Source of the DNA: Octopus vulgaris | Lineage: Eukaryota | Reading direction: 5' to 3' | Assembly (NCBI GenBank): GCA_951406725.2 | Contig: OX597816.1 | Location: 177,258,001 to 177,322,000, forward strand | DNA: 64,000 bases | In this document: piece after piece, positions 7,165-49,747 of the stretch | Layout of the letters: the number at the start of each line of letters is the position of its first letter | How positions within the stretch are numbered: position 1 is the first letter of the stretch | Notes under the pieces: generated by a model | Database searches by the model: none | What the model was told of the DNA's origin: nothing | Seen by the model: the letters and a program-made list of their open reading frames with translations, nothing else | Made by a program: the position numbers and the translations under genes

Positions 7165-7645
7165 ATCGGGTATAGCTGATCATGTATGGAATAATGGAGA
7201 CCACCTCCTCCTGTGGGATGAAGTTAAAATGATAGAGAACAACACTGGAAAATAGGAAAACTAAAAGAAGCAGCACATATGCTAGGACACAACAACCTCC
7301 TAAGGAGACTGAGTGCAGATAGGAATAGCATATGAGAACCGGTATTAAGGAAGGATAGGAAAATATAAAATTTATAAGCCCTAAAATTCACTCCATATTT
7401 GCCCACGTAGTGGCTAAGAGCGCACGCTACTAACCCCAAGATTCTGAGTTCGATTCCAGGTAGTGACCTGAATAATAATAATAATAATATTAACATCGAA
7501 AAATACCTTAGCAATGAGAGCCCAGGTTCAAAATATTCCCAAGACACCTGATGAAGGCTGGAAGGTATATCAGCCGAAACGTTGTGTTAACAACAAACAA
7601 GATGAGGACAAATATTCGTCAAATGTAAATAATGTAAATAATGTA
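7165..7645 (+). mobile_element. Penelope-like element 3' part: GIY-YIG C-terminus and pLTR-like tail
   Basis: 'SGIADHVWNNGDH..LWDEVKMI...WKIGKLKEAAHM'; tail carries a tRNA-like head on the minus strand (~7400-7470) and a hammerhead motif. Confidence 0.75.
7543..7588 (+). ncRNA. Minimal type I hammerhead ribozyme motif
   Basis: gacac-CTGATGA-a-ggctg..cagcc-GAAA-cgtt-gtgtt; stem I gacac/gtgtt; palindromic AACGTT stem III. Confidence 0.8.
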
Positions 7646-14479: not shown

Positions 14480-17400
14480 TCTTTACAAAACCTCTTTGTA
14501 AACAATATTTTCCGTTTGTCTACAACTTAGTTTCAAATTAGCTGAATCCATTGCTCATTGCGACATACAGCCGGCCGTGCGTGAATATGGGAAAGGGCAG
14601 AAACACACCGACGTGATCCAAAGTCTCGCGCTGAGATTTGTTGTAAGGGAGAAGGCTAATTTGATAGGAAACTGCCTGCGTCGTAATTGAAATGGAAACT
14701 AATTATCTGAAGGCATCAGAGGTATCCGAGGTATAAACAGACGTTTGCCAGTGTAAGAAGGACCAGTTGCTATCACCGCTTCAATGACGTGAGAGTTAAG
14801 TTCCGTAACAGTATATCTTGTTCCGTTGCAATGTCCATTAGATGGGTCAGACTTCTTCAAAGTTATTTTGTGTACTGGTAGTCCCGATGGATTGAAGTTG
14901 TTCACGAAATTTTGCGGATATTGATGGCAATTTTCATCGTCTACAGTGTCTGAACTTAGATATTCCCGACTTTCTCCTGGGAAGCTCTTGATCCTATGTT
15001 CATTTACGCTGTTGATGACATCATTGGTTGAAGCAATAACAGCTCGTGAACATAACCATGACGGGATTCGTATGCTCTTCGTCTAAACCATCGAAGACAA
15101 ATTTGCACATTTCAGAAAAGAAGTTTCTTGGACAAACTCAGGCCGGGTTTGAATTGTGTTTTTATGAGGCTCAATATACATGCAGTTTCCAAATCCGCAA
15201 CAGAGAAATTGCGAACTTTCATGTTTATTGATAGTTTCAATTCTGTGACAGACTTCCAGATATATGATGTCTTCAAGGTTGCGTTGATTATCTGAAGTCG
15301 ACTTCCACGCTTGACAACTGGTAGAATTTGCTTCCAAGTCACCAACAAACAAAACGCATATTCCTCCAAACAGATCTTTTCACCTCCTGGTGTTGCGAAA
15401 GGAACGATCCAAGCATTCAAATAGAAGTTTATCACCTTGGCTGACTTCATCGACTATCAACAGGTCAGTCATCCTGAAGGGTTTTGCGGTTGCATCATGT
15501 TCGGATATTTGGCAAGTAGACTCTGGCGTGATGTTGATAGGAATTTTGCAGCGAGAGTGGGGGGTTCGACCATTGTGTAGCTGGATAGCTGAAATTCCTG
15601 AAAGATCAATAGCGAGTACGATTTTTTTTCTCCGATCGTAGAAAATCTACAATCGCATTCACGAGATATTTTTTCCCAGTTCCACCACTTGCACTCAGGG
15701 CAAAAATCTTGTTTTCAGTGTTTTTACTGATAACCGCATTTACTACCGTATCATACACATGTCTTTGCTCTATGTTCAACGTATCATACACCTCGGCAGA
15801 CGATCTTCTCAGACTACCAGCATCGAAGTCAACTTCTTCGGAAATATTTTTTGACATCAGATCGCGCGACACGCTGTAATCAGGTTTTGGCAGCTGGAAA
15901 TTTTTCACCTGATCAAGCTCATCTCTCTGAAGACGTCCTTGCAGGCGAATCAATACTTCATTTTCAATGCTAGGATTAAGCTGGTTGACATTATTCTGAT
16001 ACATGACATCACGTGCTAATTCAAGTGTCCAACTCTCCCCAAAAGGATCGAGGATCAGACGGCCTGCAACATATCAACATGATGGCAAAAAAAACAACAA
16101 CTCTATAAGTGAATCAACAAAACGAATACTTGCAGCTTCTTCCATTGCACAGTGTATTTCTCGATTATCGGATATGAACCGACGTCTTAGGCATGCTTCA
16201 TGAAATGTTGGACAAACATTTCCATCGACCGATTTCAAGTCTTCAAAGCTAGTTGCACCTGTCACATTGTGAAGTAATATTCGGAGATGAAAGAGTTCAG
16301 ACTGGTGTGCGCTCAGTGAAATGGTTGGGGTTCGCTCAATGGTATCAGTTTTCACATCTAGTACATAATTTCTCTTGCCTCGCTTTCTCCTTTGCCAAGA
16401 CTTGTTTTTACCAATCCATGTGTAGAACTTCGGAAAGTCTTGGTATAATATCTGTCTAGCCTTTTCATCTTGTCTATTGGTAGCAAAGAAAGCCATCAAT
16501 TTTGTTGTCGGTGGTCCTTTTTGCACAGCCTAGTTCACCGGACGACAGGAAATCAACTAAAATGTTGAATCTACTTAAGATCTTCGTTTCATTTTCAGGT
16601 TGATCATTCGTGGATAGTACCATATAATCCCTACTAGACGTTGAAATATGACGCTCACATCAACGTAGAAGTCGTGCACTCCGTCTAGGCAGTTAAGTAT
16701 TTATACAAATACATAACGAAAGGTCAAGATAGAGTCATCTTTAATACTGATGGTGGTCAGCAAGTCATAGTCATCAATAAAATTGAAAATTTGTAGGATG
16801 CTGTTGGTGTATGAAAAATCCATACAACTTCCAAATTGCCTTGCTAGAAGAGATGTATCGAGCACTCACGAAGTTTTCAATTTTATTGATGACTATGACT
16901 TGCTGACCACCATCAGTATTAAAGATAACTCTATCTTGACCTTTCGTTATGTATTTGTATAAATACTTAACTGCCTGGACGGAGTGCACGACTTCTACGT
17001 TGATGTGAGCATCATATTTCAACGTTTAGTAGGGATTATATGGTACTATCCACGAATTATCAACCTGAAAATGAAACGAAGATCTTAAGTAGATTCAACG
17101 TTTTAGTTGATTTCCTGTCGTTATGTTATTGGTATTCGCATACTGGTAGTGACAATATCTCTGACAAAAAATGATACTTACCACAAAATCTATCTGTTCA
17201 CCCTGACATGTGAGCAGCTTCTGATGATTCAGCCTGCCGTCTGATGGACTTCTTCTTCGATACGTGGGGTAGCTGTCTTCCGGGATGATGGTTGAATGCT
17301 GGAACGGTTTCGGGAAATCATTTGTACAATGTGCTCCATCCTTACCAACTTCCATACATGGACTTGATTCGTTAGTAGAACTACAGGGACCATGTGTATT

Positions 17401-18892
17401 GTGCGCCATTACGGCCTTGAATAACTTTGGATTCTTATTTTAATCAGGAAATCCTGCACTAACTACTTTGTCGATGACTTCTGGCACGGCAAGTTTGTGT
17501 TGAGGAGCCATTATAAGCAGTATAAGCGCATGTGTAAGTTCACGTTTCTGCCATTCAATGGTGAATGTGTGGACGATAACTTTCCCCAATACATGTTTTT
17601 TTCAGAAGATCGTGAAGAAGTACGCCGAGCTTCATTTTAAACACTCTAGCTAAAATGTTGGGACGGTCCTCAGGGTGCTCACCTGGAAATAACGCACTCT
17701 GAATCTCTGGCCACTTTGGATTTGTCGTGAAAGTGATAAAGTAGTCGGGCTTTCCCATCGCTCTGACTATAGTTATAGCACTTTGTCAGGCTTCATTGTA
17801 AAATCTTGGACTTCTTGTGATGGTCGGTAGGAGAATGATTCTTCTAGGTGTCACTGAATCATTTTGATGTATGGCATCAAGCAATCCTGAATACTTTTTT
17901 GCTCTTATCGCAGTTTGATTTCGTTCAACCCACTGAAGCCTGCTTCGTTCAACTTTCGCCCATTGAGCTACTGCATATTGCTGCAAGAGCCTTCTACCTC
18001 GCATCACATGGTTATCTGAATTTATTCTCACTTCAAGATGATAAGCATAGAAATCCATTGCTGTCAATGTCTGTCCATTTGTTTTCTTCGAATTCAGCCG
18101 CCAGCCATCAGTTCCTTCTTGAAACAACAAGATATAGTGTAGTGGATCATAAGATCGATGAAGTGAGTTAATGCGTTTGTACGGTGCATTCTGACAGTGG
18201 ATGATGACACCCAAAGGATCTTTAATATCACCAGGAACCAACGCAGCAACTTCAGAATTCATGGGTAGGTTATATTGTCTACAATGTTCATTGGACGGTT
18301 TTGGTTTTTATCGCGATGTAAAATGATTGAAAGATTTTCAGTTTTTGACAATCTATAGCTGCATGAAAAGATAGAACGTAAGGATTAACTTGACGAATAC
18401 GGTTTTGTAGAGCAGTAACTATATCTGGATCTAACTGATCCATGTGCTCCATACGATTTCTAGTCTCATAATCTGTATCTATTCCTCTTACATAATCTGT
18501 ATCTATTCCTCTTACATAATCTGTAATCTATTCCTCTTACAAAACTTACCTCCGGGTGCCAAATTTGCCTCAGTTGATGATATTACTCAGAGGGTGGGTG
18601 GGTGGGACAGGGTCAGGGGCAGAAGGAGGATGTCAAGCATGTCCCTTTAGGAGAGTATAGGCTACCCTATTCCTTCTGGAATCTCCGGGTACCAAAGTTA
18701 TCTCCGGGTACCAAAGTTACCGCAATTGATGAAATCACTCTGAAAATAGGGGGTGGGGGAGGGACTAAACCTGTATATAAACCACGCTAGAGACCCCCGA
18801 ACACCCCTACAAAGTTCATGCCGATTGGCCCAACCGTTTGGCCGTAATGTGAGTACAAACGGACGGACGGACATTACGCCCATTATAGTATG
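14480..18892 (-). mobile_element. Decayed autonomous Helitron (Rep + Pif1 helicase)
   Basis: 'GKPDYFITFTTNPKWPEI', 'HINVEVVHSVQAVKYLYKYITKG', 'YDPLHYILLF..GTDGW', Walker A 'ASGGTGK', 'NGHCNGTRY', 'LFIPRIPL'; frameshifted; ends approximate. Confidence 0.9.
18468..18541. repeat. ~24-bp tandem repeat x3
   Basis: CATAATCTGTATCTATTCCTCTTA repeated three times. Confidence 0.85.
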
Positions 18893-18914
18893 ATATATAT
18901 ATATATATATAGTA

Positions 18915-18973
<59 letters not shown>

Positions 18974-19122
18974 GTGAAATAGAAAGATGAATAATCTTGT
19001 AGCAGATTAATCAAAAGTTTAACCGATGTTTGACCAAAAGTTTGACCATGGGCTCTTAGGAGCCTAGTTCGATTTGTTTTGCTCCGCCTCTGTTCTGTTT
19101 TTGTTTTTTCCAACGGATTTCC

Positions 19123-19215
19123 TATTTCTTCCTGAAGAGAAAGACACAATATGGTCTCATTATTCAATCGGATTTTGGTAAATTGTGCCTTTCGAAACAC
19201 GTGTAGAATGAAATA
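19123..19215 (+). ncRNA. Type I hammerhead ribozyme motif with long stem II
   Basis: tatttcttc-CTGAAGA-gaaagacacaat..attgtgcctttc-GAAA-cacgtg-TA|gaatgaaata; predicted cleavage after 19205. Confidence 0.85.
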
Positions 19216-19263
19216 AAACGATTTCTGTTCAATCTTCGTTCAGCTCCATTTCTTCAATTCACT

Positions 19264-19295
<32 letters not shown>

Positions 19296-19845
19296 TTCCC
19301 ACTCATAAAGAAAGAAGTATTTTATGGATCAATAAATCCTTTACTCGTAATTTGCATTATTTCTGCAAGGAATAAAAAGCCATTAAAAAATATAACACTT
19401 TTACGGTTGTTAGCATTCTTTTTCTGTAATATTCTAGGTAACAAACACTTTACTCATAGAAATATGCATATTGTTAAGAGGACAGGAAGCATTAGAAAAA
19501 TGTCACAAATTTAGTCACTGGTTAGAAAGACAGTGAAGGCGGATAAATCATTGGGCTTGGTGTTATGTTGTCACTTCATTCTTCACGGCTTTATCATATT
19601 TTTGCGAGAATAAAACACGCACAAGAAAAATGCCTTTGCAAACGCCTAAATATTCTAGTTTACTAAATTTGCTTATCTATTTTTAACGGACATAGTCGTC
19701 TTGATCAACAACTTTAAAAATAATTTCATTGTCATTTAACGTATCAGTTGTCCAAACTATTCAGGCCACCAGCACTCCTAATCGGAAGAGTAATTAATTT
19801 GACAAATAGTCGGCTTATTTAACCATTCTTACGGCTAAATATATA

Positions 19846-20062
19846 TGAGGGGGTGCTGAAAAGTTCCTGGCTTTGGGTAAAAGAAAATACAGGAGGATCA
19901 GTTAATTATGATTTTATTCAACATATTCCTCTCTCATATTTACACACTTATTGCTGCAGTCCTTCAGTTTTTCTAAGCCAGGTAAAGGAATTCGGAAAGT
20001 TGAGCCTTCAACAAGGCCTTTCGCAATGCCCTTAAAGCCAGGAACCTTTCAGTACCCCGTCG
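19846..20062. mobile_element. Mariner-derived MITE
   Basis: TIRs TGAGGGGGTGCTGAAAAGTTCCTGGCTTT / AAAGCCAGGAACCTTTCAGTACCCCGTCG; TA flanks. Confidence 0.8.
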
Positions 20063-20625
20063 TATTTAGCCATTCTTACGGCAATATATACCTATAGCCT
20101 ATTTCAAGTGGGGTTAGATAGGTTTCTTAACGCTAGCGCATTTCATTCTAGAAATCACGTTAAATCTACTTCAATTACAATAAATGGAAACGGAGTTTAA
20201 AAATGACATTAATTTACTTAAAACTAAAACTTCATTTAACAGCCGTTGATTCCAGATTTATAGCGAAACATTGTTGAATTTAGAATTATTATTTTGCGCG
20301 CGTAATTGCAGGGAAAAACCTGGAAAACGGCTGAACGAATTTCCACCAAATTTGGCAGAAATACTCATTGAGTGATTGGCTTGAAATGATGACCATGTGA
20401 TTTGATTATCTTAAACAAAAAACGTTTTTAAAATCATACTTACAAATTTCCCGATAAGGAAGTGGTCATATTATTTTATTCCCTTTCTTTTTCATATGAA
20501 TCGACCCTCGTCTGCACGTGTGTAGATCATGGTGTTCCTATGCGCGTAGGCATGTGTGAGTATATACATACATACATACATACATACATACATACATACA
20601 TACATACATACATACATACATACGC

Positions 20626-20659
<34 letters not shown>

Positions 20660-21136
20660 TGATGGATTCGAGGGTTTGGTTTAATTGCGAATTGATTTCT
20701 TAATTTCACCGTTCTTAGGCTTTTATTCAAACACTAACAAAGCTTAATTAAGTTCAATTAAAAGCATGAGTAAGCAACGCATTGTAAGCCTCACTATCAT
20801 TTGCGGAAAAATTTACTTGCGCTCAGGGTATGCATCGCCCCTCCGAAATAATTTTTTTCTATTGATTTCATATTATTGATTCCTGAAAAAGTAAGTGAAA
20901 GAATTAAGAAAAATGAAAATTAGCAACGTTCATGGATGTTTTTCAAGATTTTTGGGAGGAAACGACACTGGATAAAGTGTGTGGCGTCAGAAAGAAAATA
21001 CTGGATATTTCGAAGGAAATTAAATGCTGAATCGGTGTGTTGTAGTTTTCTTTTTATAACTCGATACTTTTTGATTAAACCTTGGGTGGCTGAAGCGAGC
21101 TGTGGGTCCAAGCCTTTGATAATCTTTCTTAAAATA

Positions 21137-22442
21137 TTAGGTTGTTCCGAAAATAATGGCCGCTCTGTGTTGTGTTTCGAAACGCAATTTTATTATAGTA
21201 TTTTAATTGTATTTTAGGTGAATTTCGATATATTTAATAATTGATGTATGCTCTTTAATAATTTTCTACTTATTTCAGACAGAAAACATTTTTGAAGCAT
21301 AGGCGCCCTTAATTATGAACATGACAAAAAAAGGACCTTCGCTTACTTTTCTTGCATTAGTTGAAGCTTGGGCACAATACCTCCCAAACTATTGCCAATA
21401 CCAAAAGAGCATGAGGTGAGGAGCCCACAAGTGATCGCACATTACGAAAGTGGTTTCAGAAATCCCGTAGTGGTGATAAGAGCCTTGAAGATGAAGGTAG
21501 AAGACTGTCATGCAGTCTTATCAATGAACATTTGAAAGCAACTGTTGAACAAAACCCACGTCAAAGTGTCGGTATTGCAACGGTCTCACGTAATCTACAG
21601 AAGATTGGTAAGGTGAAAAAGCTCGATAAATGGGTACCGCACGAGCTAAATGAAAATCAAAATGTTCGGCATTTTGAAGTGAGCTCGATGCTCTTTCTGC
21701 AAAACACTAATGATCCTTATTTTGACCGAATAGCCACTTGTGACCAAAAGTGGATCCTTTATGATAACCATAAACCAGGTCAATGGCTTGATTACGATGA
21801 GTCCCCCAAACATTTCCCAAAGCCAAAGCTGCATCAGCAAAAGATTATGGTAACTATCTGGTGGTCTGCAATTGGTGTTGTCCATTACAGCTTTCTCGAA
21901 GCCAATCAGAGAGCATTACGGCAGAGGCTTACGGCAATCAAATCGCTGAAATTCATGCTCACTTGCAAAAAATGAGATCTGCAGTAGTGAATCGTCGTGG
22001 CCCAATTCTGCTTCACGATAATGCAAAGCCACATGTTGCAAGCATGACACTGCAGAAACTCACAGACTTGGGATACGAGACTTTACCACATCCTCCATAT
22101 TCTCTTGATCTTTCATTCACTGACTATCATTTTTTAAGCATTTAAACACATTTTTAAGTGATAAAACTTTCAGGTCCGAACCAAAGATGGAATCACCTAC
22201 ACATTTTTAAGTGATAAAACTTTCAGGTCCGAACCAAAGATGGAATCACCTTTCAAAGATTTCTTAGCATCAAAGCAAACAGGTTTTTGTCAACGAGGCA
22301 TAAATAATCTCGTTGATTGATGGCAGGGATCCATAGATGTTCACGGCTCATACTTTGGCTAATCAAGACATTTTTTTAGTGTTAGTTTTTCCAGAATAGA
22401 ATTATGTTTCTGAAATCGGCCATTATTTTCGGAACAACCTAA
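21137..22442 (+). mobile_element. Full-length decayed mariner (DD34D) transposon
   Basis: TIRs TTAGGTTGTTCCGAAAATAATGGCCG; 'WVPHEL', 'TCDQKW', 'LHDNAKPH', 'HPPYSLDLSFTDY'; frameshifts; ~53-bp internal tandem duplication at ~22146-22251. Confidence 0.92.
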
Positions 22443-22565
22443 TGTGAGGGATCATAAAACTGCAAGGTACATAACAGAATTTGCGTTGAGGCAGTCTAAC
22501 GATAGTTTAACTGGCCAAAACTTCGAAGTTATTATCAATGATATTTCTGATTAACATTTACATAG

Positions 22566-22641
<76 letters not shown>

Positions 22642-22653
22642 GTCTGTCTATAT

Positions 22654-23035
22654 AGGCGCAGGCGTGGTTGTGTAGTAAGAAGCTTGCTTCCCAACCACAA
22701 GGTTTAGAGTTCAGTCCCACGGTGTGGCACCTTGAGCAAGTGTCTTCTACTATAGCCTCGGGCACACCAAAGCCTTGTGAGTGTATTTGGTAAACGGAAA
22801 CTGAAAAGAAGCCCGTCGTGTGTTTTTGTGTGTGTGTACCCCCACACTTGAAACCGGTGTTGGTGCGTTTACGTCCCCATAACTTGCCATAACGGCAAAA
22901 GAACACGATAGAATAAGTACCAGGTTTAACAAATAAGTACTAGGGTCGATTCATTCGACTAAAAATTCAAGGCGGTGCCCCAGCTTGGCTGCAGTCTGAT
23001 TACTGAAACAGGTAAAAGATAAACGATAAAAGATA
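22654..23035 (+). mobile_element. SINE family B
   Basis: Same head, CORE-like segment and tail as 7689-8117. Confidence 0.8.
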
Positions 23036-23230
23036 TATATAAATTCTTCACGTGCACGCATGCGCAGACATACACATACGTATACAAAGCAACAACGCCA
23101 ACGCACTCAGAAACTCACACACCTGTTTTCTCACTTTTCACCACTGAATCTTACTACCGCTAACCTGTCAGTACCACTCCCTTATACGCATATCAGTCGC
23201 ATAGACACAAACACACACGCACACAGACAC

Positions 23231-23466
23231 TACCTATTTCTTTATTACCCACAAGGGGCTAAACATAGAGGGGACAAACAAGGACAGACATAGGTATTAA
23301 GTCGATTACATCGACCCCAGTGCGTAACTGGTACTTAATTTATCGACCCCGAAAGGATGAAAGGCAAAGTCGACCTCGGCGGAATTTGAACTCACAACGT
23401 AACGACAGGCGAAATACCGCTAAGCATTTCACCCGGCGTGCTAAGGTTTCTGCCAGCTCGCCGCCT
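23231..23466 (-). mobile_element. SINE family A
   Basis: Near-identical to 499-732. Confidence 0.85.
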
Positions 23467-23704
23467 CGACGCACACACTGGCCGTTTTCGCACTTTCCTA
23501 CCTTCAAAATTCACTTTTCCTATCTTTCTCACTTCCAACTTTGTAATAATAACTTCCCTACTTTTCTTGCATTACTCTTTCTCTTCCCTCTAGACTTGTC
23601 TTTTTTCTGACTAAGAGCCATACCCGAAACGTCAAACATCCCTCTTTTTTTTTCCATCTTAAACTGAGCATCAACCTAATACATTCACTGGATATGTCCT
23701 TTTG

Positions 23705-23738
<34 letters not shown>

Positions 23739-23939
23739 CTGTGAGCTGGCAGGGGTATTTACTCCGATTTTAGGTTCTGAGTTCAAATTCTGATAAGGTC
23801 CCCTTTGCCTTCCACCCTTGCGGGGTCGATAAAATAAGTACCAGTCGGGCATTAGGGTCGATACAACTGACTATTCTCCTCCCCAAAAATTATACGCCTT
23901 GTAACTATAGCAGAAATGATTATATATATATATATATAT

Positions 23940-24015
<76 letters not shown>

Positions 24016-24740
24016 TGAACATAGACAGCCAATTTCAGTTCGGTTATGTGCGACATATAATCACTGGAAATGTTCAATAAGTAGACAGTGCTATAAATTT
24101 GTCTATATGAATTTTTTTAAAAGAAAAATTATCTCAGATATAGTGCATCAAGAAAATATGGAAAATTTAGCAAAACAACCAAATATTTCAGCCACTTTTA
24201 GGCTAGACGCAGTTACTAGTTTAACCATACACAATAAGGTAGTTGTTGACATCAAGAATAATTGGCATACAAATAGACCAGGGACGAGGTTACACACACA
24301 CATACACAAAGAGATATACAAAGACACTAACATGAGTTTGTTGGTAGGTGGTGCTGATGGTGGTGGTGAGGAACTCCAGCGCAGTATGGAGAACTATTTC
24401 GCCCGGGCGAAGATCCAAAATAATTTTAATTTTCAAAGAATTTTGAAGTTGAAGTTGTCAGTTGCTGTTTAAATCTCGGAAAATTTTCTGAATACACACA
24501 CGCATAGTAGTTATTTGAGTAACAAACTGTTATTGAGAGTTCCTCGGGGCCGATCATAAGACAGTCGTATGCTATCTACTCATGACTTCTTGATAATCGC
24601 TTACAGGAAAATTGTGAGATTTATTGAAATTCAATAAATTACCATTATATTCTGCTTTTGGTATTCGAATATTTTTTCTTTCCACCTTGCTTTTCACCTA
24701 TGTGCTCATACGTGTGCGCGTGTGTGTACGTGTACGTGTG

Positions 24741-24788
<48 letters not shown>

Positions 24789-25379
24789 TGTGTGTGTGTG
24801 TGTGTGCATAGATATGATTGCATAGTTTTGCGGAATATTTTTTACCTTCAGAAAGAAATATCCGAGGAGAAATGTCTTTCTAAGGGCAAATACCAGAACC
24901 TAAACGTTACAGAACAGTTGGCAATTTTTGCAAAAATGAGCAATTTCAGTACAGTAAAAACGGTAGCTAACCATGAAAAACTAAGGTCATTTTCGGAATC
25001 GGAACCCTCAGATTAGCTAAAAAAAACGTGTTTTGTTTCTTGGCACCAAAAATTGTCTTGACCAGTGTTATCTATCATATTACAGCATCGCGTCATCTAT
25101 ATGTGTGTGTGCAATAGTTATGGTCATTACAACTATGTAAACAAATGAAAACTTATACGTTCCAAATACATTTGATAAAAAAATAATTTTTAATATTAAA
25201 AATTACTAAAGCTACGATCACTATAAATCGATGCGTTTAACTTTAACTTAATTTAATAAATTATATTATATAATATCATCTACATATTCATGAGAAACGT
25301 GCTTAATAGAATTTATGGCAATCTCAATGCTACTGTCACTTGTGTGGGAAGCTTTATATACATCTTTACTATTTGATAA

Positions 25380-28327
25380 TAGGAGGTTTACATTTTAGAA
25401 GTAATTGTCCTTTTAAAAACCGTAAGTGTTTTGAGTGTAGAAAAATCGGATATAAAAGCTCACATTGTATAGCGAAACAGAAAAAAGGATAAAGAAAAAA
25501 TTCTAGAAAGAATATACTGTTAACAAAAATTCTAAGCAAGGCTCAAAAAAGAAAATTTGTGTCTATAAAACTGAATAATGTGAATATCAAGTTACTATTG
25601 GATATAGACAGTTCTATAACGATAATTAATACAGGTACATTGAGAAAAATAGGGAAACCTAGATTAAAGGAAACTCCGAAAATTGCGCGAGGTGTTTCAG
25701 GAAAAAATTGCATTATGGGTGAAATAATAAGTGATGCTACGTTTCATGGAAAAACTTTGAAAGCCAAAGTTTTTGTGTTAAAAAATACGACAAATTTATT
25801 TGGAACATACCTCCCCATAAATAATTTTTTGTAAAAATGTGTATGGTTCTTCCACCAGTATAAATAAAGCGACGGAAGATTTTAAAAAAAGAATTAAAAA
25901 GAAATTTTCCTGAAGTTTTTTTCTGATGAATTGGGTCTTTGCACCAAAACTGAGGCGAAGTTTCAAGTGAAAGAAAACGCTATGCTGGTACTTTTCGCAG
26001 CGCTGAAACAAGACAACAAAGAATACGATAGACTTGAAAAGCTTGGCGTTATTGAAAAAAATGATTACACAAAATGGGCGAACCCAACAGTTTATGCCAA
26101 GGAAAAAAAATAATAAACTCTGAGTATGCGCTGATTTTTCAACGGGATTACATGAATTTTTGATGCCATTACCAAGTCCGGACGAAACTTTTGCGATGTT
26201 GAATGGAGGAAAAATGTTTTCAAAGTTGGACTTATCTGAAGCATATTTGCAGGTAAAAATCTGTGAGGAATGTTTAAAATTATTGACAATAAATACCCAT
26301 AAAGAGTTGTATAAATTTAATTGACTCCCCTTTAGTACAAAGGTAGCACCTGGCATTTTCCAACAAGTTCGGATTTCGTTGTAGTTTACCTAGACGACAT
26401 ACTCATAAAAAGTGAACCTCGGAGTCAGCATGCTGAGACTGTTAAAGAATAAAAGATTATGGGTTTAAGCTCAGTGAGGAAAAGTGTGAATTTGTTATGC
26501 CGAGAATAAAATATGTAGGGCAGATTATTAATGAAAATGATCGCAGACCAGAACCGTCTAGGGCGAGTGCAATAAAAATATTACAAGCATTTTGGGGCTC
26601 GCAAATTACAGCCAGGTATACATACCGAAGGTGCACGATATAAGAGCACCCCTGAATAGCTTGTTAAAAAAAGACGTTAAGTGGAACTGGTCGGATAAAT
26701 TTCAAAAAGCTTTTGAAGAAAGTAAAAACGTCATAACGTCGAAATGATCGTAATCACATTTTGACCCGAATTTTGAAATAGTGGTGACAGTAGATGCTAG
26801 TGAAAGTGGTATTAGAGCTCTGATTTTATACAAATATGAAGACGGTAGCCTGAAAGCGGTGGCTCATGCTTCGCGTTCATTATTACCGGCTGAGAAAAGT
26901 TACAGTCAAATAGAAAAAGAGGCATTAGCCATCATATTTGCGGTAATAAAATTCCATAAATTTATATATGGAAGAAGGTTCCGTCTACAGACAGACCACC
27001 GCCCATTATTGTCGTTCTGTGGATCAAAAAAGGGTATTTCCACATATACAGCCAACAGACTGCAGCGCTGGGGAACGATCCTACTGAATTACGACTTGAA
27101 AATGGAGTATTTGCCATCGAAAAAATTGGGACAAGCAGATGGTTTGTCACGGTTACTACCAAAATACAATGAACCACTTGAAGACACAGAGATAGCGGCG
27201 TTAAAAGCCGAAAAGGAAATAAAAAATGCAATGTTGTGCGTGAATTACCTGTGACATTTGAAGAAATAAAAATTAAGGCAGAGACGGACGAGTTTATCAT
27301 AAAAATGAAAAATAAAAGTGAGATAAGAAGATACAAATAAAAAATACGTGTGGCTGGATGTAACACAGTTTCAAATTTGTATTTGATGTTTGATAATGTG
27401 CTTATTTATGCACAGAGGGTCTACATCACTACAAGGTCCAACGTTAAAGGAATTCCACACTGGACATCCAGGAATTTCTAGGACGAAGTCGCTTATGAGG
27501 AGTTATAAATGGATCTAGATATTGAGAAGTTGGTAAAGTTCTGCAGAGGTTGTGCTCTGGCAGCGAAACTCCCACCTATAAAATTTCAACCTTGCCCCAA
27601 GACCGATATTCCATGATCCAGACTACACATAGACTTCACAGGACCGTTAAACCGTTCTTATTATCTAATTGTGGTAGACAGCTTTACTAAATGGCCAGAA
27701 ATGTGTAAACGTAGAAAACCGACATCCACGGTAACAGTGGAATTTCTTTGCTAGGTTTGGTGTCCCGGATACCATAGTCTCCGATAACGGTACACAATTA
27801 ACGGCAAATGAATTTAACAATTTTTGCAAGTTGTTCTCAATTGAACATATCACTACTCCTTCGTATCACCCAAGATCAAACGGGCAAGCGGAAAGGTTCG
27901 TGGATACATTTAAAAGAGCATTAAAGAAATCAAGAAACGAGCTAATCGATGACGCAGCATCGACACAATTCTTGAGGGTTTATAAGATAACACCAAATAC
28001 AAACACTTTTTCAGGCAAGTCGCCGGCGGAACTAACGTTTACTCGAAAAATAAAGTCAATTTTCGACAAGCTGTTACCAGTAAGAAAAATAAATAGGGAA
28101 AACACTGATTATACGACAAAACACCAGCGACAAGGTGTTTTTCAAAATATATAAAAAAGATTTATAGATATTGATGGAAGACAAGGTTGGGAAGACAGAG
28201 TAGTAACAAAAAGAATAGGCAAAATGACGTATATGATGAGGCGAAAAATGGGAATACAAAAGACATTTAAACCAGCTAAAAAATAGATATACGGAAAAAT
28301 TAAAAGAGCTACCTATGGAAGTATTCT
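25380..28327 (+). mobile_element. Decayed Gypsy/Ty3 LTR retrotransposon gag-pol (Mag/K02A2.6-like)
   Basis: Zinc-knuckle remnant ~25400; protease 'LLLDIDSSITII'; RT 'YLDDIL'; RNase H 'VDASESGI..YSQIEKEALAII..TDHRPL'; integrase 'VSDNGTQL', 'YHPRSNGQAERFV'. Confidence 0.92.
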
Positions 28328-28499
28328 CCCCTGATGAAATACTCAATTAACCAGTTTCAATATGAATTTCCAGAAAGGAGTTACATTCCAACGTGTTGGT
28401 CGACCCTTGACAGACACAGATATGCGTGTTTTGGTAATGAATATATTTTTTAAAAAACGTTATGCGTATATTCAAATATACTTATAAAAAAATATATAT

Positions 28500-29385
28500 G
28501 ATTTAGTTCTGCACGTACGTTTGTTATACATAACTGTTGTTATCGATGGTGGCGTTGCAGTTAGGGTGAACTAGGTATCATAGAGAGAGAGAGAAAGACT
28601 GAAAGAGAGAGACAAATAGAGATAGGTTGAGTGAGAGTGGGCGAGAGACATTTCCCCCTTTGAGATAGACTTCCGTTGACAGTTTATATTATTATTTTTA
28701 TTTATTTATTTTTCTTTCATCATATCTCCCTTTTTGAGATTTTCCTCCTAGGGAAGTTTAATCTTTCTTCCGTTTAGGCAATACTTCAAACCGTTCTGTT
28801 TGTTTCCTCTTTCTTGTGCCGCTACGCCTATGTTCCATTCCATGTGGCGTTGTAACATCAAAAATGTCATAGAATACTTCCATAGGTAGCTCTTTTAATT
28901 TTTCCGTATATCTATTTTTTAGCTGGTTTAAATGTCTTTTGTATTCCCATTTTTCGCCTCATCATATACGTCATTTTGCCTATTCTTTTTGTTACTACTC
29001 TGTCTTCCCAACCTTGTCTTCCATCAATATCTATAAATCTTTTTTATATATTTTGAAAAACACCTTGTCGCTGGTGTTTTGTCGTATAATCAGTGTTTTC
29101 CCTATTTGTTTTTTCTTACTGGTAACAGCTTGTCGAAAATTGACTTTATTTTTCGAGTAAACGTTAGTTCCGTCGGCGACTTGCCTGAAAAAGTGTTTGT
29201 ATTTGGTGTTATCTTATAAACCCTCAAGAATTGTGTCGATGCTGCGTCATCGACTAGCTCGTTTCTGGATTTCTTTAATGCTCTTTTAAATGTATCCACG
29301 AACCTTTCCGCTTGCCCGTTTGATCTTGGGTGATACGAAGGAGTAGCGATATGTTCAATTGAGAACAACTTGCAAAATTCTTAAA
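28500..29385 (-). mobile_element. Inverted copy of the Gypsy integrase 3' end, with PPT and LTR-like sequence
   Basis: ~28872-29378 is the reverse complement of ~27822-28327; it continues to the ORF end and a purine tract AAAAAGGGAGA (~28725-28735). Confidence 0.8.
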
Positions 29386-29746
29386 TCTCAGAATGATAAT
29401 GCACCAATTCGCACAGCTAAAGTTGTTACTTAATGGCACGAGGGACATTCTAGTGAAGTTGAACATCTTATCTGTCCACTACAGTCCCCAGATCTCAATA
29501 TTGCTGAACATTTATGGTGCATTTTAGAACAACAAGTTAGGAGTCGATATCTTCCACCATCATCGCTACAAGAACTGGAGACTGTTTTAGCTGAAGAATG
29601 GACAAGAATTCCTTTGAAAACAATTCAAACTTTGTCCGAGTCCATATCTCGTAGAATTCAAGCTGTAATTACTGCCAAAGGCGGTTCTACCCCATGTTAA
29701 AATAAATTTTAAGGTGTTTACATTATTTTGTCCAACCCCTGTACAT

Positions 29747-29796
<50 letters not shown>

Positions 29797-29814
29797 GTAG
29801 ACACACACATACAA

Positions 29815-29891
<77 letters not shown>

Positions 29892-30957
29892 TATATATGT
29901 GTGTGTGTGCACATATATATATTAATGAGAAAAAGAAAAAAATGGGGAAAGTGACGTATAGGCATCAGTTTATTCAAAGATTTTCAAATCAAATGAAATT
30001 CTTATCCTTAAATCTGTTTCCATATCCACTTAGTTCATTTAGAGAAATTAAATTAATTTCCCTCCGGAAACAGTTCCTCAACCATAGGATGAATTTGATC
30101 AGATAAAATGCTTAAATAGTCTTGACTATTTATTCTGCCACGAAGAGAAACCATTGTGTCGGCGGATTTCCAAGATATAGTTCCCCAGATCATCACAGAT
30201 CCTCCGCCATGTTTAACAGTTGGAAGAAGGCAGTCTGGGTCAAATGCTTCTTTTGGCTGTCTCCACACGTATACTCGGCCAGTGGTCGGAAATAAGGTAA
30301 AGGATGACTCGTCCAAGAAAATAACATTCTTCCATTGCTCTAGGTCCAATTCTGTAGGTTTTTACTCCACCCTAAACGCTTCGCAACGTTTGTTTTTGAA
30401 AGTAGTGATTTTTTGATTGCGGCCCTCCCGTGAAATCCGAGTTTGTGCACCTTCCGGCGAAAAGCTTTTGTAGAAACTGGGTTCTTGAGGTGGTCATTAA
30501 GCTCTGCAGTAATTTTTGGAGCTGCACTTTTGTGATCTTTTCTAATAATTCGTGTAAGAGTCCGACGGTTCCTATCTGAAAGTTTTGGTTTTCTTCTGGT
30601 TTTCTTCTTCGACGAGGATGTTTTTCCCTCTTTCTCAAAGGCTGTCATTACTCTCGAGACAGGACTTCTTGATACACGAAACATTTCGGCTGTTTTCGTT
30701 ACACTAGTGCCGGCGATAGGTCTGTCATTTTAATGAATTTTAATGAAAGTCCGATAGATCTGTCATTTTAATGAATTTTAATTACCTTTTTCTGATGATA
30801 TTTGGAGAGAAAAACAGCAATTTTAGCGAAACATATTAAGCAACACTAATAATAAATCAAAAAACATAAAAGTAAACAAGCTTTTGGCAGTTTTATAGAT
30901 ATTTCAAAATTATGATGCTATGATGCTAGGTGTTTCCATTATTTTGTCGAACCTCTG
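29385..30957 (-). mobile_element. Tc1 (DD34E) transposon split by an inversion: 5' part 30957-30056 (-), 3' part 29385-29741 (+)
   Basis: 'WKNVIFLDESSF', 'PTVKHGGGSVMIWG'; plus part 'NDNAPIRTAK', 'QSPDLNIAEHLW'; TIR copies 29712-29741 and 30928-30957, each followed by TA. Confidence 0.88.
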
Positions 30958-30982
30958 TAAATATATATATATACATGTATAA

Positions 30983-31020
<38 letters not shown>

Positions 31021-31110
31021 TTATACATGTATGTGTATATACTTATGTACATGTGTATGTTTTGCGTGTATATGTGTGTTGTGTGTGCGCGCGCGCGCGT
31101 ACATATGTAA

Positions 31111-31412
31111 TCTTTATATAAAAAAGTGAAGTTGTGTGTCTGTCTCCTACGATTTAGATTCCTAACTACTCCCACATTTTGCGGTGCAGTGTAACCAAAA
31201 CCGGGTATCTTATAGTCGTGATTCATATTGAGCCCTTCTGGGTATTAGCGCGCGTCTATGATGAGTCTACGATTTAAAAAAAAAATTTACCATATTTTTC
31301 CCTCATTTTTAATGCATTTTTTTTTGCTATTATATAAGGGAAGTAACTCTCTAAAAATGCTTATATAGTTATTTCCCTTACAAACCTGAGCAACGCCGGG
31401 CGATACTGCTAG
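31111..31412 (+). mobile_element. Non-autonomous Helitron
   Basis: A|TC...CCTGAGCAACGCCGGG...CTAG|T. Confidence 0.85.
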
Positions 31413-31896
31413 TCGTATATATAGGGAACAGCTTTTCTTTTGTTGTGTCTGGGGAGAGTCATTTTTTTTGTGCCTTATAATGTAACACACTCACCGGTAA
31501 AATTTCCACTTATTTCTTATTTTTATTTTCCTAAAATTTTCGTTGCGTCTCGCAACCTTTTCAATAGTCTTCACTCTTTTATACACGTTTTACAAAATGC
31601 ACGAACGTGTTCAATTTTTACCTCTTTTATTTTAGATTATTTTCCATTTTGTTATTGGTTATTTTTGCAGTTAATCTAGAACAATAAAATTTCAAAATTC
31701 ATATTAAAATATTTCCGGGCCTTCACTGTTTCCTTTTCAAGAATTGAATATTTTTGGTGCCTGTGTTTCTTATGCATTCTTTGAATTCATGTAGACTTTT
31801 CAACCGAAGTTGTCTTAACTATTAGGCTTCCACATCAGTTGTATTGTGTAATTTTTTTTTACTGTGGTTAAATTGTTATCATTACAGTGGATGTAA

Positions 31897-32281
31897 TGGA
31901 AGCACTCCGTCGGTTACGACGACGAGGGTTCCGGTTGATCCGAATCAACGGAACAGCCTGCTCGTGAAATTAACGTGTAAGTGGCTGAGCACTCCACAGG
32001 CACGTGTACCCTTAACGTAGTTCTCGGGGATATTCAGCGTGACACAGAGAGTGACAAAGCCGGCCCTTTGAAATACAGGTACAACAGAAACAGGAAGTAA
32101 GAGTGAGAGAAAGTTGTGGTGAAAGAGTACAGCAGGGATCACCACCATCCCCTGCCGGAGCCTCGTGGAGCTTTAGGTGTTTTCCCTCAATAAACACTCA
32201 CAACGCCCGGTCTGGGAATCGAAACCGCGATCCTATGACCGCGAGTCCGCTGCCCTAACCACTGGGCCATTGCGCCTCCAC
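31897..32281 (-). mobile_element. SINE family C
   Basis: Near-identical to 11572-11954 and 38446-38830. Confidence 0.88.
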
Positions 32282-32289
32282 TTCATTAC

Positions 32290-33480
32290 AGTAGCCATGT
32301 ATTAGTTATTTGTGTGTTTTCTTTGACACTGAATCGTAATGAGTAAGGCTTCCATAATTCATTTTTGTGAGGTATTATATGATCCTCTCCTACTTTTTGT
32401 CTTTGTTTTGTGGTGTACAGTATAGTGTTTTGCGATTGTTGTTAATGCATAGTGTGGCTCCGAGATAATGTCCAATGTAACAGCTGATTACATTGGTCAT
32501 TCGTAGCATGTTTTGTGGTTTACATGCCCGTGAAGTGTTATTGTTATGTAGGCTTTTGGTTTTGGTGTTTTTGTAGTATATTAATAGTTAAAGTTTATGG
32601 ATAAATGAGATGCCTTTTGTTCCATTTCTTGAGGATTTTGATAATGTATTTATCTTTACAATAGTCTTTATGCATTTGAATGATATAGTAAATGTTGTGT
32701 AGTTTGTGTATATTATTGGATATATTCTCTGATGCATTGTTGTAGAATATTTGGTATTCTATTCTTCTATAGCTCGGTCTACTTATCTATCAGAATACCC
32801 TTTGTTAATTAATGTTTGTTTTATTCTGTGGATTTCTTTTTCTAGTACCTTGTCTTCAAACAAAACCATATATGCACTTCTAAGGCGTGACTTTATTACT
32901 GCCATCATGATATAGTTTTGTGTGCATTTACTGTCCTCATATCGGACATATATGCATTTTGTTTGATCCTTTGCTGTATACTGACACAATGCGTCTTACT
33001 TTCTGACCTGCATGATTATGTCTTATTTGTATTCTGGATATTAAATGTTTGCACGGAGCTGGTCTATAAGTCTTCCTTCAGTTTCTCAACGTCCTTAAAT
33101 TTATCCATTACCACCATGTGTTTATGTTTTGGTATTATTCTGTTCTCTATTGCGTATAAGTAGAATGTGGCAAACGTAGATACCAGTCAGAAGCCTATGG
33201 TCACTCTATCTTAGCATAAATTACCTTGTGAGCAGCAGAAAGATACTTATAAGGTAATCTCTTTTTCATAAGTTTGATGGCATCGCAGGTTGCTTCATTT
33301 TTGGCTCTTTATAGACGTTTTGTTCAGTGATTTTTATTGTTTCTGTCACCACGACGTTAGTGAACAAACTTTCTACATCTCATGTGGAGATGGTACCTAT
33401 TGCGTTAGTCTTTCCTTAAATTTTTTAAAGAATTATCTGAGTACTTTATATTATATTCCTCTGGTGTATTTTATTTAATG
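32290..33480 (-). mobile_element. Highly decayed PLE RT/GIY-YIG relic
   Basis: 'KEIHRIKQTLINKGYS' resembles a PLE thumb; degenerate YIG at ~32490; ~32812-33058 duplicated at ~37011-37257. Confidence 0.6.
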
Positions 33481-33720
33481 ATGTATTCTTTCTTACATTC
33501 ATATACACACACGGTATAGAAATATGCATTTAGATATACGAGTACACGTATATGTTTAGATATTGTATGTTCACACACACACACACAAACACACACGCAC
33601 ATGTGTATATATGTATATGTATGTAGATGTACATTCATACCTATACACACATATATACATACGTATATGTATATATATACGCGTATATTCATGTGTGTGT
33701 ACATGGACACACACATACAC

Positions 33721-33761
<41 letters not shown>

Positions 33762-33973
33762 CATACACACACACACATATATATATATATACACACATTC
33801 ACACACACACACACGCACACATATATATGTATATATGTATATACATTCATTTTATGTAAGCGTAAAAGAGCACACCTAATATATGTGGTATAAAGATATG
33901 CGTATGTGCGCGTATATGTATGTATGCATATATATAATGTAGATATACATACATACATACATACATACATACA

Positions 33974-34009
<36 letters not shown>

Positions 34010-34913
34010 TATAAACATATAGAAGCGTTGCTGGCTCTTCTTATATCTTTATAAAGATGTGTAAACATTAATTTTTATACACGGAAACCTATGTAAACAG
34101 GTACTCAACATACATAATATACGCACACACACGCACCCACACACTATGAAACTTACACCGACACACGTAACTACATATGCAGATATATACTAATTTACAC
34201 ACACACAGAGTGAATATAGAACAGTGTGAGAGATAATAAGACAGAGGCCTTGTAAGAGAGATGTGTAAGGAGAATATAGTTAGTTAAGGTATATAGATAT
34301 ATATCAGATGTATATGTGTACTTAACGTCCATAGGCATAAGTATTAATAACATTTTTACTATATATATCTTTAGTTGTTGCCTTTTCGCTTACATTGTAC
34401 CTTGTTACTATTACTTACAATTGTATACGTTACATTTGAGCAGCTTTCTCTCTTCAGTTTGTTTACTGTTGTATAACATACGAATGCCACATAAAGAATT
34501 AAAAAAATGCGTTGTATGTCGTTTCGTACATTAAGCATGGATCTGCATGCTTCTTCTTACCGCCAAGCCAGTCATTCAAATGGTTCATCACACTAGTAAA
34601 TTTGTTTTCGTCGTTGTTGTTGCTGTGTAGGTCTTTTTTTGTTTCGGATTTAGTAGATCTCCGAGCATAAGCGTGACAGCCGCGATCACTCCGTCTTTTA
34701 TTTAGAAGTAATGTTTGTATTCATGACTAACTACACTTTCTAATACGTCTTTCCCTTTAATGCAGTGAAATGTGGAAGATGTAGCTACTATTCATAACAA
34801 GTTTAACTACTATGCAGGGGGCCCCTCGTTTACTCGACAGGTATATGTTGTAATTTTACGGGTCTCCCGAAAGCAGACATCTCAGTCACATTTCTTATTT
34901 TTTTATTGCCTAC

Positions 34914-35388
34914 ATCATCATCATCATTGTTCGACCGTGGTCGAGACAATGGAATTTACCATGCTACGCCAGACTTCACGGTCCATCATGGCATTACGGA
35001 GGTCCTGTTGCTGGATGCCTGTATCCCTGGAGATTACATCAGGGTAGGAGAGTGTGCGCCCTCTGGTATCACGAGTAGATGGCTTCCAGAGGAGAAGAGC
35101 AGAAATTACTTTTTTTTCAGCTCTACAACAATGTCCAGCAAACTGGACTCTCCTACCTTTCACAAGAGATGACACAGGTGGTAGTTTCCCATATATTTGC
35201 ATTTTGGTTGGATGGCGCCTCCACGAGAGATTTTGAGCTCTCATAAGGAGGCGAGTGTAGGTTCCTCTCAACCGCTTCTTTGATAACGTCCAGGTTTCTG
35301 AGCCATATAGTAGAATTGGTTCGACTGTGGCTTTGAAGATTTCAAGTTTGAAGTCTCTACTTAGATTTGATGACCAGATCTTATGCAA
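34914..35388 (-). mobile_element. 5'-truncated RTE-like LINE 3' end with (TGA)n tail
   Basis: 'FKATVEPILLYGSETWTL', 'RRVQFAGHC', 'DREVWRSMV'. Confidence 0.85.
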
Positions 35389-35775
35389 GGGGCTAAACAT
35401 AGAGGGAACAAACAAAGGAATTAAGTCGATTATATCGACCCCAGTGCGTAACTGGTACTTAATTTATCGACCCCGAAAGGATGAAAGGCAAAGTCGACCT
35501 CGACGGAATTTGAACTCAGAACGTAACAGCAGACGAAATATCTATTTCTTTACTACCCACAAGGGGCTAAAAACAGAGAGGACAAACAAGGACAGACAAA
35601 CGGATCAAGTCGATTACATCGACCCCAGTGCGTAACTGGTACTTAATTTATCGACCCCGAAAGGATGAAAGGCAAAGTCGACCTCGGCGGAATTTGAACT
35701 CAGAACGTAACGGCAGACGAAATACAGCTACGCATTTCGCCCGGCGCGCTAACGTATCTGCCAGCTGGCCGCCTT
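35385..35775 (-). mobile_element. Head-to-tail dimer of SINE family A
   Basis: Two Nin-like bodies and one tRNA head; junction GACGAAATA|TCTATTTC at ~35540. Confidence 0.8.
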
Positions 35776-36088
35776 ACATTTCTCAGTTACAATCTCAAAC
35801 CGTGTAGAGCGGTATTATGCATGCACATTAACTTACATGTAAAGACTCAACCCAACCAACCGTTATAAACACCACTTACATCGCCGCCGCCTCCAGAGAG
35901 TGAGGAAAGAGGCAGTCATAAAAAAAACTCATTGAAAAGGTACATGTGTAGCGAAAGACTTTGACGCATTAAATAATGAAGTGAAGTACTGTTAATTCCT
36001 TATGTGAAATGATCCGTATCGTAAGCATTTCGAATTGATTATCCTTTTGCATTTCATAAAATAGCTTATACATACACAATGAATGTAA

Positions 36089-46016: not shown

Positions 46017-46346
46017 AAAATACAAAGGAAGGGTGGAGAAAGGAATTTAAGTGCAAATATAAAGTATGCATCTACACACACATATAATATATACCGTGCT
46101 CTCATCATATCCAAAACCCGAAAAAACATATCTACATCTATATAAACAAGTATACACAGCCATATTTATGAACGTACATGTACGCACACTGAAATACGTA
46201 GAAATGCAAACTTAGACAAACACACATTGACTCTAACTAGAATATCCATGAGTTAAAGCTTTAATCTAACATCAAATTCTATGATTCGTTTTGTTTTAAT
46301 TATATTAATATAATAGTTCACGTGCTGTTTAATGAATGACATACCT

Positions 46347-46762
46347 ATTTCTTTATTACCCACAAGGGGCTAAACGTAGAGGGGACAAACAAGGACAGGC
46401 ATAGGTATTAAGTCGATTACATCGACCCCAGTGCGTAACTGGTACTTAATTTATCGACCCCGAAAGGATGAAAGGTAAAGTCGACCTCGGCGGAATTTGA
46501 ACTCAGAATGTAACGGCAGACGAAATACCTATTTCTTTACTACCCACAAGGGGCTAAACGTAGAGGGGACAAACAAGGACAGACATAGGTATTAAGTCGA
46601 TTACATCGACCCCAGTGCATAACTGGTACTTAATTTATCGACTCCGAAAGGATGAAAGGTAAAGTCGACCTCGGCGGAATTTGAACTCAGAATGTAACGG
46701 CAGACGAAATACCGCTAAGCATTTCGCCCGACGTGCTAACCACTCTGCCAGCTCGCTCGCTT
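46347..46762 (-). mobile_element. Head-to-tail dimer of SINE family A with 14-bp TSD
   Basis: TSD TGAATGACATACCT at 46333-46346 and 46763-46776; internal period 184. Confidence 0.85.
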
Positions 46763-47330: not shown

Positions 47331-47795
47331 GTTCCTTATCTCTATAGGTGATAAAAATCTCAGGCGGCTGGTTGGTTGGTCAGTTGTATACGCTTAATGT
47401 TGTATAAGATGAGAGCAAAGGTGAGAAAAAAAGAGAGAATATATGTACGTGTGTGTGTGTATGTAAAAGAGAGAAACAGATACAGTTCCTTATCTCTATA
47501 GGTGATAAAAATCTCAGGCGGCTGGTTGGTTGGTCAGTTGTATACGCTTAATGTTGTATAAGATGAGAACAAAGGTGAGAAAAAAAGAGAGAATATATGT
47601 ACGTGTGTGTGTGTATGTAAAAGAGAGAAACAGATACAGTTCCTTATCTCTATAGGTGATAAAAATCTCAGGCGGCTGGTTGGTTGGTCAGTTGTATACG
47701 CTTAATGTTGTATAAGATGAGAGCAAAGGTGAGAAAAAAAGAGAGAATATATGTAAGTGTGTGTGTGTATGTAAAAGAGAGAAACAGATACAGTT
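47331..47795. repeat. 154-bp tandem repeat x3
   Basis: Units start at 47331, 47485 and 47639; nearly identical. Confidence 0.92.
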
Positions 47796-49324: not shown

Positions 49325-49394
<70 letters not shown>

Positions 49395-49509
49395 AGAGTT
49401 TAGGAAAAAAACAAAAGACGAAGGCAGGTGGTGTACAAAACAAACAGATGTATTAGTATAACGCTCAGGAAAAAAAAAAACTTTTACGTTTCGAGCCTAC
49501 GCTCTTCTA

Positions 49510-49573
<64 letters not shown>

Positions 49574-49575
49574 CA

Positions 49576-49622
49576 AAAACTGTCTGATGAACGGTAACGA
49601 GAAACTCAGAGTAACAGATTTT
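49576..49622 (+). ncRNA. Minimal type I hammerhead motif in an ~80-bp (TA)n-flanked unit
   Basis: ctgt-CTGATGA-acggtaacga-GAAA-ctcagag-TA|acag; stem II closing pair is degenerate. Confidence 0.7.
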
Positions 49623-49649
49623 GTTGAATTTTCTGCTGCTTAAAATAAA

Positions 49650-49747
<98 letters not shown>

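Follow-up and report, generated by a model that had tools for sequence, protein, structure and literature searches.

A type I hammerhead unit in an octopus TA microsatellite as the probable 3' terminal piece of a Hydra-clade PLE

The window, the whole 64-kb stretch of Octopus vulgaris DNA analysed here, contains a unit of about 300 bp on the plus strand (18970/18971-19267; 297 bp, 35% GC), flanked by a left (TA)n tract (18893-18970; period 2, 38 copies), the presumed insertion target, and a right (TA)14 tract (19268-19295), beyond which the sequence no longer belongs to the repeat. Read along the plus strand, the unit comprises the decayed C-terminal end of a putative Hydra-clade GIY-YIG endonuclease (18970-19027), assigned through a motif match and a comparison by eye, an 11-nt filler at an internal deletion (19028-19038), the first 9 nt of which repeat 19040-19048, a 3' UTR-like segment (19039-19122) that includes a U-rich tract and a small hairpin at about 19048-19066, a type I hammerhead (19123-19215) with a predicted cut after A19205, and a tail of 62 nt 3' of that cut (19206-19267), containing one AATAAA at 19212 and kept in genomic copies. 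The segment at 19039-19122 occupies the place between the ORF end and the hammerhead, as in Hydra consensi.

An earlier note on this DNA had described a non-coding unit lying between (TA)n tracts. The flanking tracts were found as described, but such flanking is common in the window, which holds 33 TA tracts and 15 inter-tract units of 60-700 bp; the term non-coding suits all of the unit except 18970-19027, where a decayed coding remnant is present. The 64-kb window carries no second copy of the unit. It also carries no tRNA gene, and a reading as a tRNA-derived SINE was dropped for that reason. A B-box-like word was spotted by eye near 19067.

The surroundings contain remnants of other elements. 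A decayed Helitron occupies approximately 14700-18310 on the minus strand, with Helitron_like_N and PIF1 Pfam matches, and the left TA tract of the unit adjoins the end of this decayed region; the segment leading up to that tract (18420-18892) consists of short tandem repeats with a 75-bp internal duplication and may represent a Helitron terminus. Fragments of a mariner-type transposase, an LTR retrotransposon (RNase H, integrase) and non-LTR elements (zf-RVT, RVT_1) are distributed over 21415-22145, 26754-28154, 53616-54206 and 55294-55854. Near-perfect tandem repeats lie at 46341-46713 (184 bp, two copies) and 47331-47795 (154 bp, three copies), and the first hammerhead descriptor applied found no hammerhead in either array.

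The hammerhead itself is a real sequence and structure motif, and its cleavage is predicted. The core half CUGAAGA spans 19132-19138 and the second core half, GAAA, spans 19194-19197, placing the halves 55 nt apart. Helix II pairs 19139-19150 with 19182-19193 in 11 of 12 positions, the exception being an A19144.C19188 mismatch, and closes a loop of 31 nt (19151-19181). Helix I pairs 19123-19131 with 19206-19215 through nine pairs, with U19209 bulged. The GUA triplet lies at 19203-19205. Stem III is formed by an 8-nt palindrome (19197-19204), which as a monomer gives 2 bp and a tetraloop. All structural elements proposed in the earlier note were thereby confirmed, namely the perfect CTGAAGA and GAAA cores, a stem II of about 12 bp with one mismatch, a stem I of about 9 bp with one bulge, the GTA triplet, and the palindromic CACGTG of stem III, which proved slightly longer than the 6-mer; its label of a minimal hammerhead was wrong, given that helix III is present and helix II is very long.

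The possibility that this structure is a chance hammerhead look-alike within an unrelated repeat, having neither catalytic nor PLE ancestry, was weighed against these features. A relaxed type I descriptor yielded 0.12 loci per dinucleotide-shuffled 64 kb, none of 300 shuffles carried stems as good as those observed, and a Hydra-style core pattern with four-base stem III arms matched the unit and none of 100 shuffles. Rfam reported nothing at gathering score in the 64 kb, and at E<=10 over 18900-19350 it returned chance matches only, with no hammerhead among them. Neither the whole unit (z -0.37; 66 of 200 shuffles fold as well) nor the isolated motif (z +0.60) showed excess folding stability relative to shuffled sequences. 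The missing Rfam match and the ordinary stability would suit a look-alike, against which stand the shuffling results, a core invariant among variants, and an independent endonuclease remnant on the same strand in the expected place; a coincidental resemblance is therefore judged extremely improbable. Outside the locus, core-pattern loci in sequence collections (five metagenomic, seven from prokaryote genomes) were rejected as chance, all 12 being devoid of helices or real similarity, while the viral collection held no locus with the core pattern and an exact 21-nt viral scan returned none.

Hammerheads recur within the window. An 80-bp unit between TA tracts (49571-49650, plus strand) carries a complete Hydra-style type I hammerhead, matched by none of 100 shuffles, with its core at 49584, four-base stem III arms around one nucleotide and a 37-nt tail; it is unrelated in sequence to the unit at 18971. 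A PLE-type minimal hammerhead occurs at approximately 7544-7587 (plus strand), having a 4-bp helix I, an extra nucleotide after the core, a 5-bp helix II and no loop III. The region upstream of it, at approximately 7180-7360, looks by eye like what we take to be a decayed Penelope/Poseidon-type endonuclease end. A minimal hammerhead 3' half is located at 49392-49510 on the minus strand, with helix II, GAAAC at 49492 and GUA; the TA tract at 49330-49391 follows after about 100 nt, and the 5' core has been lost next to a (CT)n tract. The first descriptor gave a single match in the window and missed two other complete hammerheads, so its only hit cannot be read as a count; three complete hammerheads in 64 kb indicate that PLE ends are routine in this genome. 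The layout of the hammerhead at 49571-49650 resembles that of the Hydra-2_aMil row in PMC8557442; statements credited here to published sources refer to the accessible portions of those texts.

The affiliation of the unit was addressed through its 5' portion. The first frame reads LCEIER*IIL*QINQKFNR, a coding remnant of about 20 codons with stops at 18988-18990 and 19000-19002, and no intact RT-EN ORF of the kind carried by an autonomous PLE. The endonuclease of Hydra-clade elements is C-terminal and ends in CxLCxxE[KR] followed by hydrophobic residues (PMC8557442); of the CxxC preceding the conserved E, the unit retains the portion from the second Cys onward. Compared by eye with LCMAERYIIL of Hydra-1_Obim, the remnant shares seven of ten residues and 20 of 30 nt. 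A Hydra endonuclease pattern, built from six published families and chosen as a test after the peptide had been seen, matched once in the six frames of the window, at 18970 and on the strand of the hammerhead; its chance rate was 0.02 per shuffled 64 kb, and one in 20,000 unit shuffles matched. Pfam assigned no family to the 20-residue remnant. In X7, one of four public runs aligned on the locus, loose letters behind 19027 continue the same frame with YLxxKxxAV, to be set by eye beside YLNSRTEAV in Hydra-1_Obim, and the form in another run, X4, has one extra base behind 19027. The distance from the endonuclease motif to the core is 162 nt plus the deleted segment, versus 258 nt in Hydra-1_Obim (by eye).

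The remaining layout is likewise that of the Hydra clade, in which 26 of 27 rows list a (TA)n target and the hammerheads, whose stem III arms are self-complementary, are located close to the 3' end (PMC8557442). In the unit, a C-terminal endonuclease end stands directly upstream of the 3' UTR, a type I hammerhead with self-complementary stem III lies near the 3' end and is followed by the 62-nt tail, and the copy in the window is inserted in (TA)n. The four-base stem III arms are identical to those of two Hydra rows, Hydra-1_cRog and Penelope-17_HM. No RT, which in Hydra-clade elements has DKT and RWK motifs with a CxCX5C linker and no CCHH, lies inside the unit, no PLE ORF was found nearby among the scanned ORFs of at least 100 aa (16 of 75), and there is no pLTR or partial tandem at the locus and no back-joint in the four runs. 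Judged from the sequence, the unit is most probably the 3' terminal piece of a Hydra-clade PLE, comprising the last endonuclease codons, the 3' UTR, the hammerhead and the tail, with a probability of roughly 0.85. The earlier proposal of a non-autonomous, PLE-derived piece in a TA microsatellite is thus supported, and the endonuclease remnant, layout, 3' position and target sharpen it to the Hydra clade.

A competing assignment would derive the unit from the 3' end of a different PLE clade with a (TA)n target, be it Naiad, Neptune or Nematis, and treat the Hydra-like peptide as a coincidence. Naiad was the first lead. The five cephalopod Naiads listed in PMC8557442 all prefer (TA)n, some Naiad core halves lie 35-50 nt apart, close to the 55 nt of the unit (PMC8557442), and other PLE hammerheads typically have a long helix II (PMC4209133). 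Naiad was dropped because its endonuclease is N-terminal, it has no canonical hammerhead and the published Octopus Naiad 3' ends differ from the unit, as far as the accessible text of PMC8557442 goes, whereas the unit has its endonuclease remnant just 5' of a complete hammerhead. None of nine short motifs from the unit and its variants occurs in the accessible part of the PMC8557442 supplement, where line breaks can hide a match, and the Penelope/Poseidon rows compared there are without the LCxxE[KR] motif. Assignment to another clade is accordingly considered quite improbable.

The distribution of the unit was examined in public sequencing runs. At least half of 26 sampled words of the unit were held by 19 of the 24 runs listed, covering nine studies and five organism labels and including assemblies of only 36-42 Mb; one of the runs may be the source sample. 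Contigs from four of the 19 runs were aligned on 18951-19840, with 894, 39, 441 and 133 placed; run X20 (share 0.23) was left aside. Cover was limited to ten bins of the unit in three of the four runs, with none from 19281 on, and the fourth (X15) contributed one flank contig of depth 10 over 19477-19840. The summed depth of X15 over the ribozyme was 20,000-36,000 relative to 10 on this flank; summed depth is not copy number, and if the flank is single-copy and overlapping contigs inflate the sum by as much as 31-fold, roughly 120-3,600 copies may be estimated for the X15 organism. In public runs the unit belongs to a high-copy family that occurs under five organism labels. X1, the deepest DNA run, left the right flank (19281-19840) uncovered although its cover of the unit was very high; a polymorphic flank, filtering or a partial reading are possible causes.

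The family occurs in several forms. Loose ends were found behind 19027 in all four runs (up to 59 nt) and before 19039 in three of the four (up to 109 nt) among those shown, with 41 more existing; longer family members therefore hold other sequence at this point, and the copy in the window carries an internal deletion. One X1 contig skips from about 19027 to 19125, a second deletion form in which both outer parts are kept, and one X4 contig joins unrelated sequence to 19223 onward and looks like a very short 5'-truncated copy. Depth in X1 falls 5'-ward, from about 1,000,000 over the ribozyme to 13,747 at 18981-19010, which suggests 5' truncation, although fragmented contigs, skipped repeats and the likeness cut-off all act as confounders. 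In the run alignments, sequence flanking other copies was passed over as repetitive. Beyond the predicted cut, at 19221-19250, depth stays at the level seen over the ribozyme. A 157-nt contig in X4 spans the cut site and is identical to 19079-19235, the RNA status of this run being a guess and its contigs carrying no end information.

These data bear on the earlier description of the unit as retrozyme-like. On that account it would be a solo monomer of a non-LTR retrozyme, a tandem family whose multimers are cut, circularised and re-inserted by PLE enzymes. A length of 297 bp, 35% GC and a type I hammerhead fit the retrozyme definition (PMC7229834), and retrozyme families frequently have dispersed monomers among their members and originate from PLE ends (bioRxiv 10.64898/2026.07.22.740005, based on a sample of mostly vertebrates). 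Seven runs in three studies hold the unit and would add transcripts to this picture, their RNA status again being a guess. Against a retrozyme stand the single copy in 64 kb, the absence of strong self-pairing in the monomer RNA (z -0.37), and the colinearity of the unit with a PLE 3' end (endonuclease remnant, UTR, hammerhead, tail). The sole joint in the four runs is the internal skip, and none leads from the 3' end back to the 5' end, bearing in mind that contigs drop rare forms and that arrays may exist elsewhere. With one unit at the locus, no head-to-tail joint in any of the four runs and a monomer that is not highly self-paired, the retrozyme-like label is not supported, and a solo retrozyme monomer is regarded as unlikely.

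Within the Hydra-clade reading, two arrangements were distinguished. A discrete non-autonomous family is given marginally better than even odds, and ordinary 5'-truncated copies of a full element fall just short of even. The family is distinct from Hydra-1_Obim, as the hammerhead and UTR sequences differ.

Sequence variation offers a view of how the ribozyme has been maintained. The four runs gave 27 variant rows at 24 positions of the unit; 19 variable positions lie in the 93-nt motif and none on its 13 core positions (P=0.04, possibly favoured by the alignment filter). Seventeen changes were tied to one X4 contig by piece-end distances, and most of them are common to one X7 contig. This divergent X4/X7 haplotype turns the A.C mismatch at 19144/19188 into C-G, changes three helix II pairs to G.U, including the conserved G10.1-C11.1 (19193), and breaks the pair at 19190, with helix II still paired at 11 of 12 positions; one helix I pair (19211) is also broken. 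A more divergent form, found in the loose ends of three runs, has the stem III ACAUAUGU, a perfect 8-nt palindrome reached through a double change, and three double changes would let the 3' strand of its helix II pair with the variant 5' strand, provided that the two are linked. Helix II is variable at 10 of 24 positions and the loop at 7 of 31, so that the helix is as variable as the loop, a common allele opens the terminal helix II pair (19182), and transitions produce G.U pairs even without selection; these points count against maintenance. Overall, the evidence for selection on the ribozyme is moderate. No variant rows fall on the two stop codons, where rows near piece ends may be hidden, and this invariance hints weakly that the family spread after the ORF had died.

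Folding computations were used to consider how the ribozyme could act. For the isolated 99-nt motif, stem III of the monomer forms with a probability of 0.04; the active fold is 1.1 kcal/mol less stable than the minimum, a gap that widens to 6.0 kcal/mol for the whole unit. Left unconstrained, the dimer of this motif folds into a double hammerhead at -44.7 kcal/mol, versus -31.8 kcal/mol for two monomers, a gain that is only modestly unusual, being equalled in 13 of 250 matched windows. In dimer folds of the whole unit and of its 3' half, the core is sequestered and paired elsewhere, so a dimer hammerhead is not predicted by folding in the longer context; action as a dimer is plausible, on modelling, for the isolated motif. 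PLE hammerheads with a weak helix III cut poorly and need dimers (PMC4209133). In the Anolis PLE, the one PLE tested biochemically, hammerhead mutants had no effect on insertion and uncut RNA was the main template (PMC11167929).

From PLE biology, a mechanism may be proposed in which an autonomous Hydra element would supply the RT-endonuclease that binds the transcript in trans, the GIY-YIG domain of this enzyme would nick (TA)n DNA, and target-primed reverse transcription would copy the RNA from its tail; an early stop or a short template would leave a copy of about 300-400 bp inside the microsatellite. The unit itself is decayed, has an internal deletion and has multiplied to high abundance. 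Its hammerhead probably has little activity as a monomer, since stem III offers 2 bp and a tetraloop and the length of helix II puts the usual loop contact out of reach; cutting would be most efficient in a pair of RNAs joined by the palindrome. As there is no tandem partner, the reaction would depend on trans pairing of two transcripts or on weak monomer cleavage. The template would be mostly uncut RNA, given that copies keep the tail beyond the cut site, and retention of the 62 nt at full depth fits the Anolis PLE result. More speculatively, the copies might constitute a SINE-like, non-autonomous Hydra-derived family with fixed ends, shared stops and internal-deletion sub-forms, occupying hundreds to thousands of (TA)n sites in several related species with no tandem arrays, and carrying a long-helix-II hammerhead that escapes descriptors and Rfam and is selected to cut only through trans pairing of transcripts via the stem III palindrome; this fuller picture is tentative and somewhat doubtful as a whole.

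No description of the family was found in the accessible literature on PLE and Hydra-clade hammerheads and on octopus and cephalopod elements, and an entry in Repbase or Dfam is possible; the accessible part of PMC8557442 lists one octopus Hydra family. The present unit adds a high-copy Hydra-clade family in a cephalopod genome and is no new kind of element. Its unusual parts are the 12-bp helix II with a 31-nt loop and, possibly, its standing as a discrete non-autonomous family. Rfam does not recognise this form, in which 55 nt separate the core halves, so ribozymes in such genomes may be undercounted. Being dispersed, and having both natural covariants and a clear dimer palindrome, the family would also be convenient for comparing monomer with trans-dimer cleavage.

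Among known systems, Hydra-clade PLEs (PMC8557442), with Hydra-1_Obim closest, share with the unit an endonuclease motif, UTR, type I hammerhead and short tail in this order of parts, as well as the (TA)n target and self-complementary stem III arms; no pLTR is seen at the present locus, and Hydra-1_Obim is also listed without one. The unit differs from them in having no RT and a dead ORF remnant, in a helix II of 12 bp with a 31-nt loop versus 3-7 bp and 3-10 nt in 26 Hydra rows (PMC8557442 File S2), and in a stem III without the central nucleotide of Hydra hammerheads. Non-LTR retrozymes (PMC7229834; Li, Clavereau and Pollet 2026) are similar in size (150-450 bp), low GC, type I hammerhead, non-autonomy and PLE derivation; unlike them, the unit is not tandem at its locus, shows no head-to-tail joint in four runs, is not highly self-paired, and has helix sizes that preclude the canonical loop 1-loop 2 contact. 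The minimal hammerheads of metazoan PLEs (PMC4209133), mostly single dispersed motifs in truncated PLEs, resemble it in the long helix II, the G10.1-C11.1 pair, the palindromic stem III region and a dimer-type architecture, whereas they possess neither helix III nor loop 3 outside the core pairs and the unit has 2 bp and a tetraloop. Non-autonomous Chlamys elements such as MRC1 (PMC8557442) are, like the unit, PLE derivatives similar to an autonomous 3' end; unlike it, they are green algal, usually show pLTRs and copies arranged head to tail, and in the accessible text are mostly without hammerheads.
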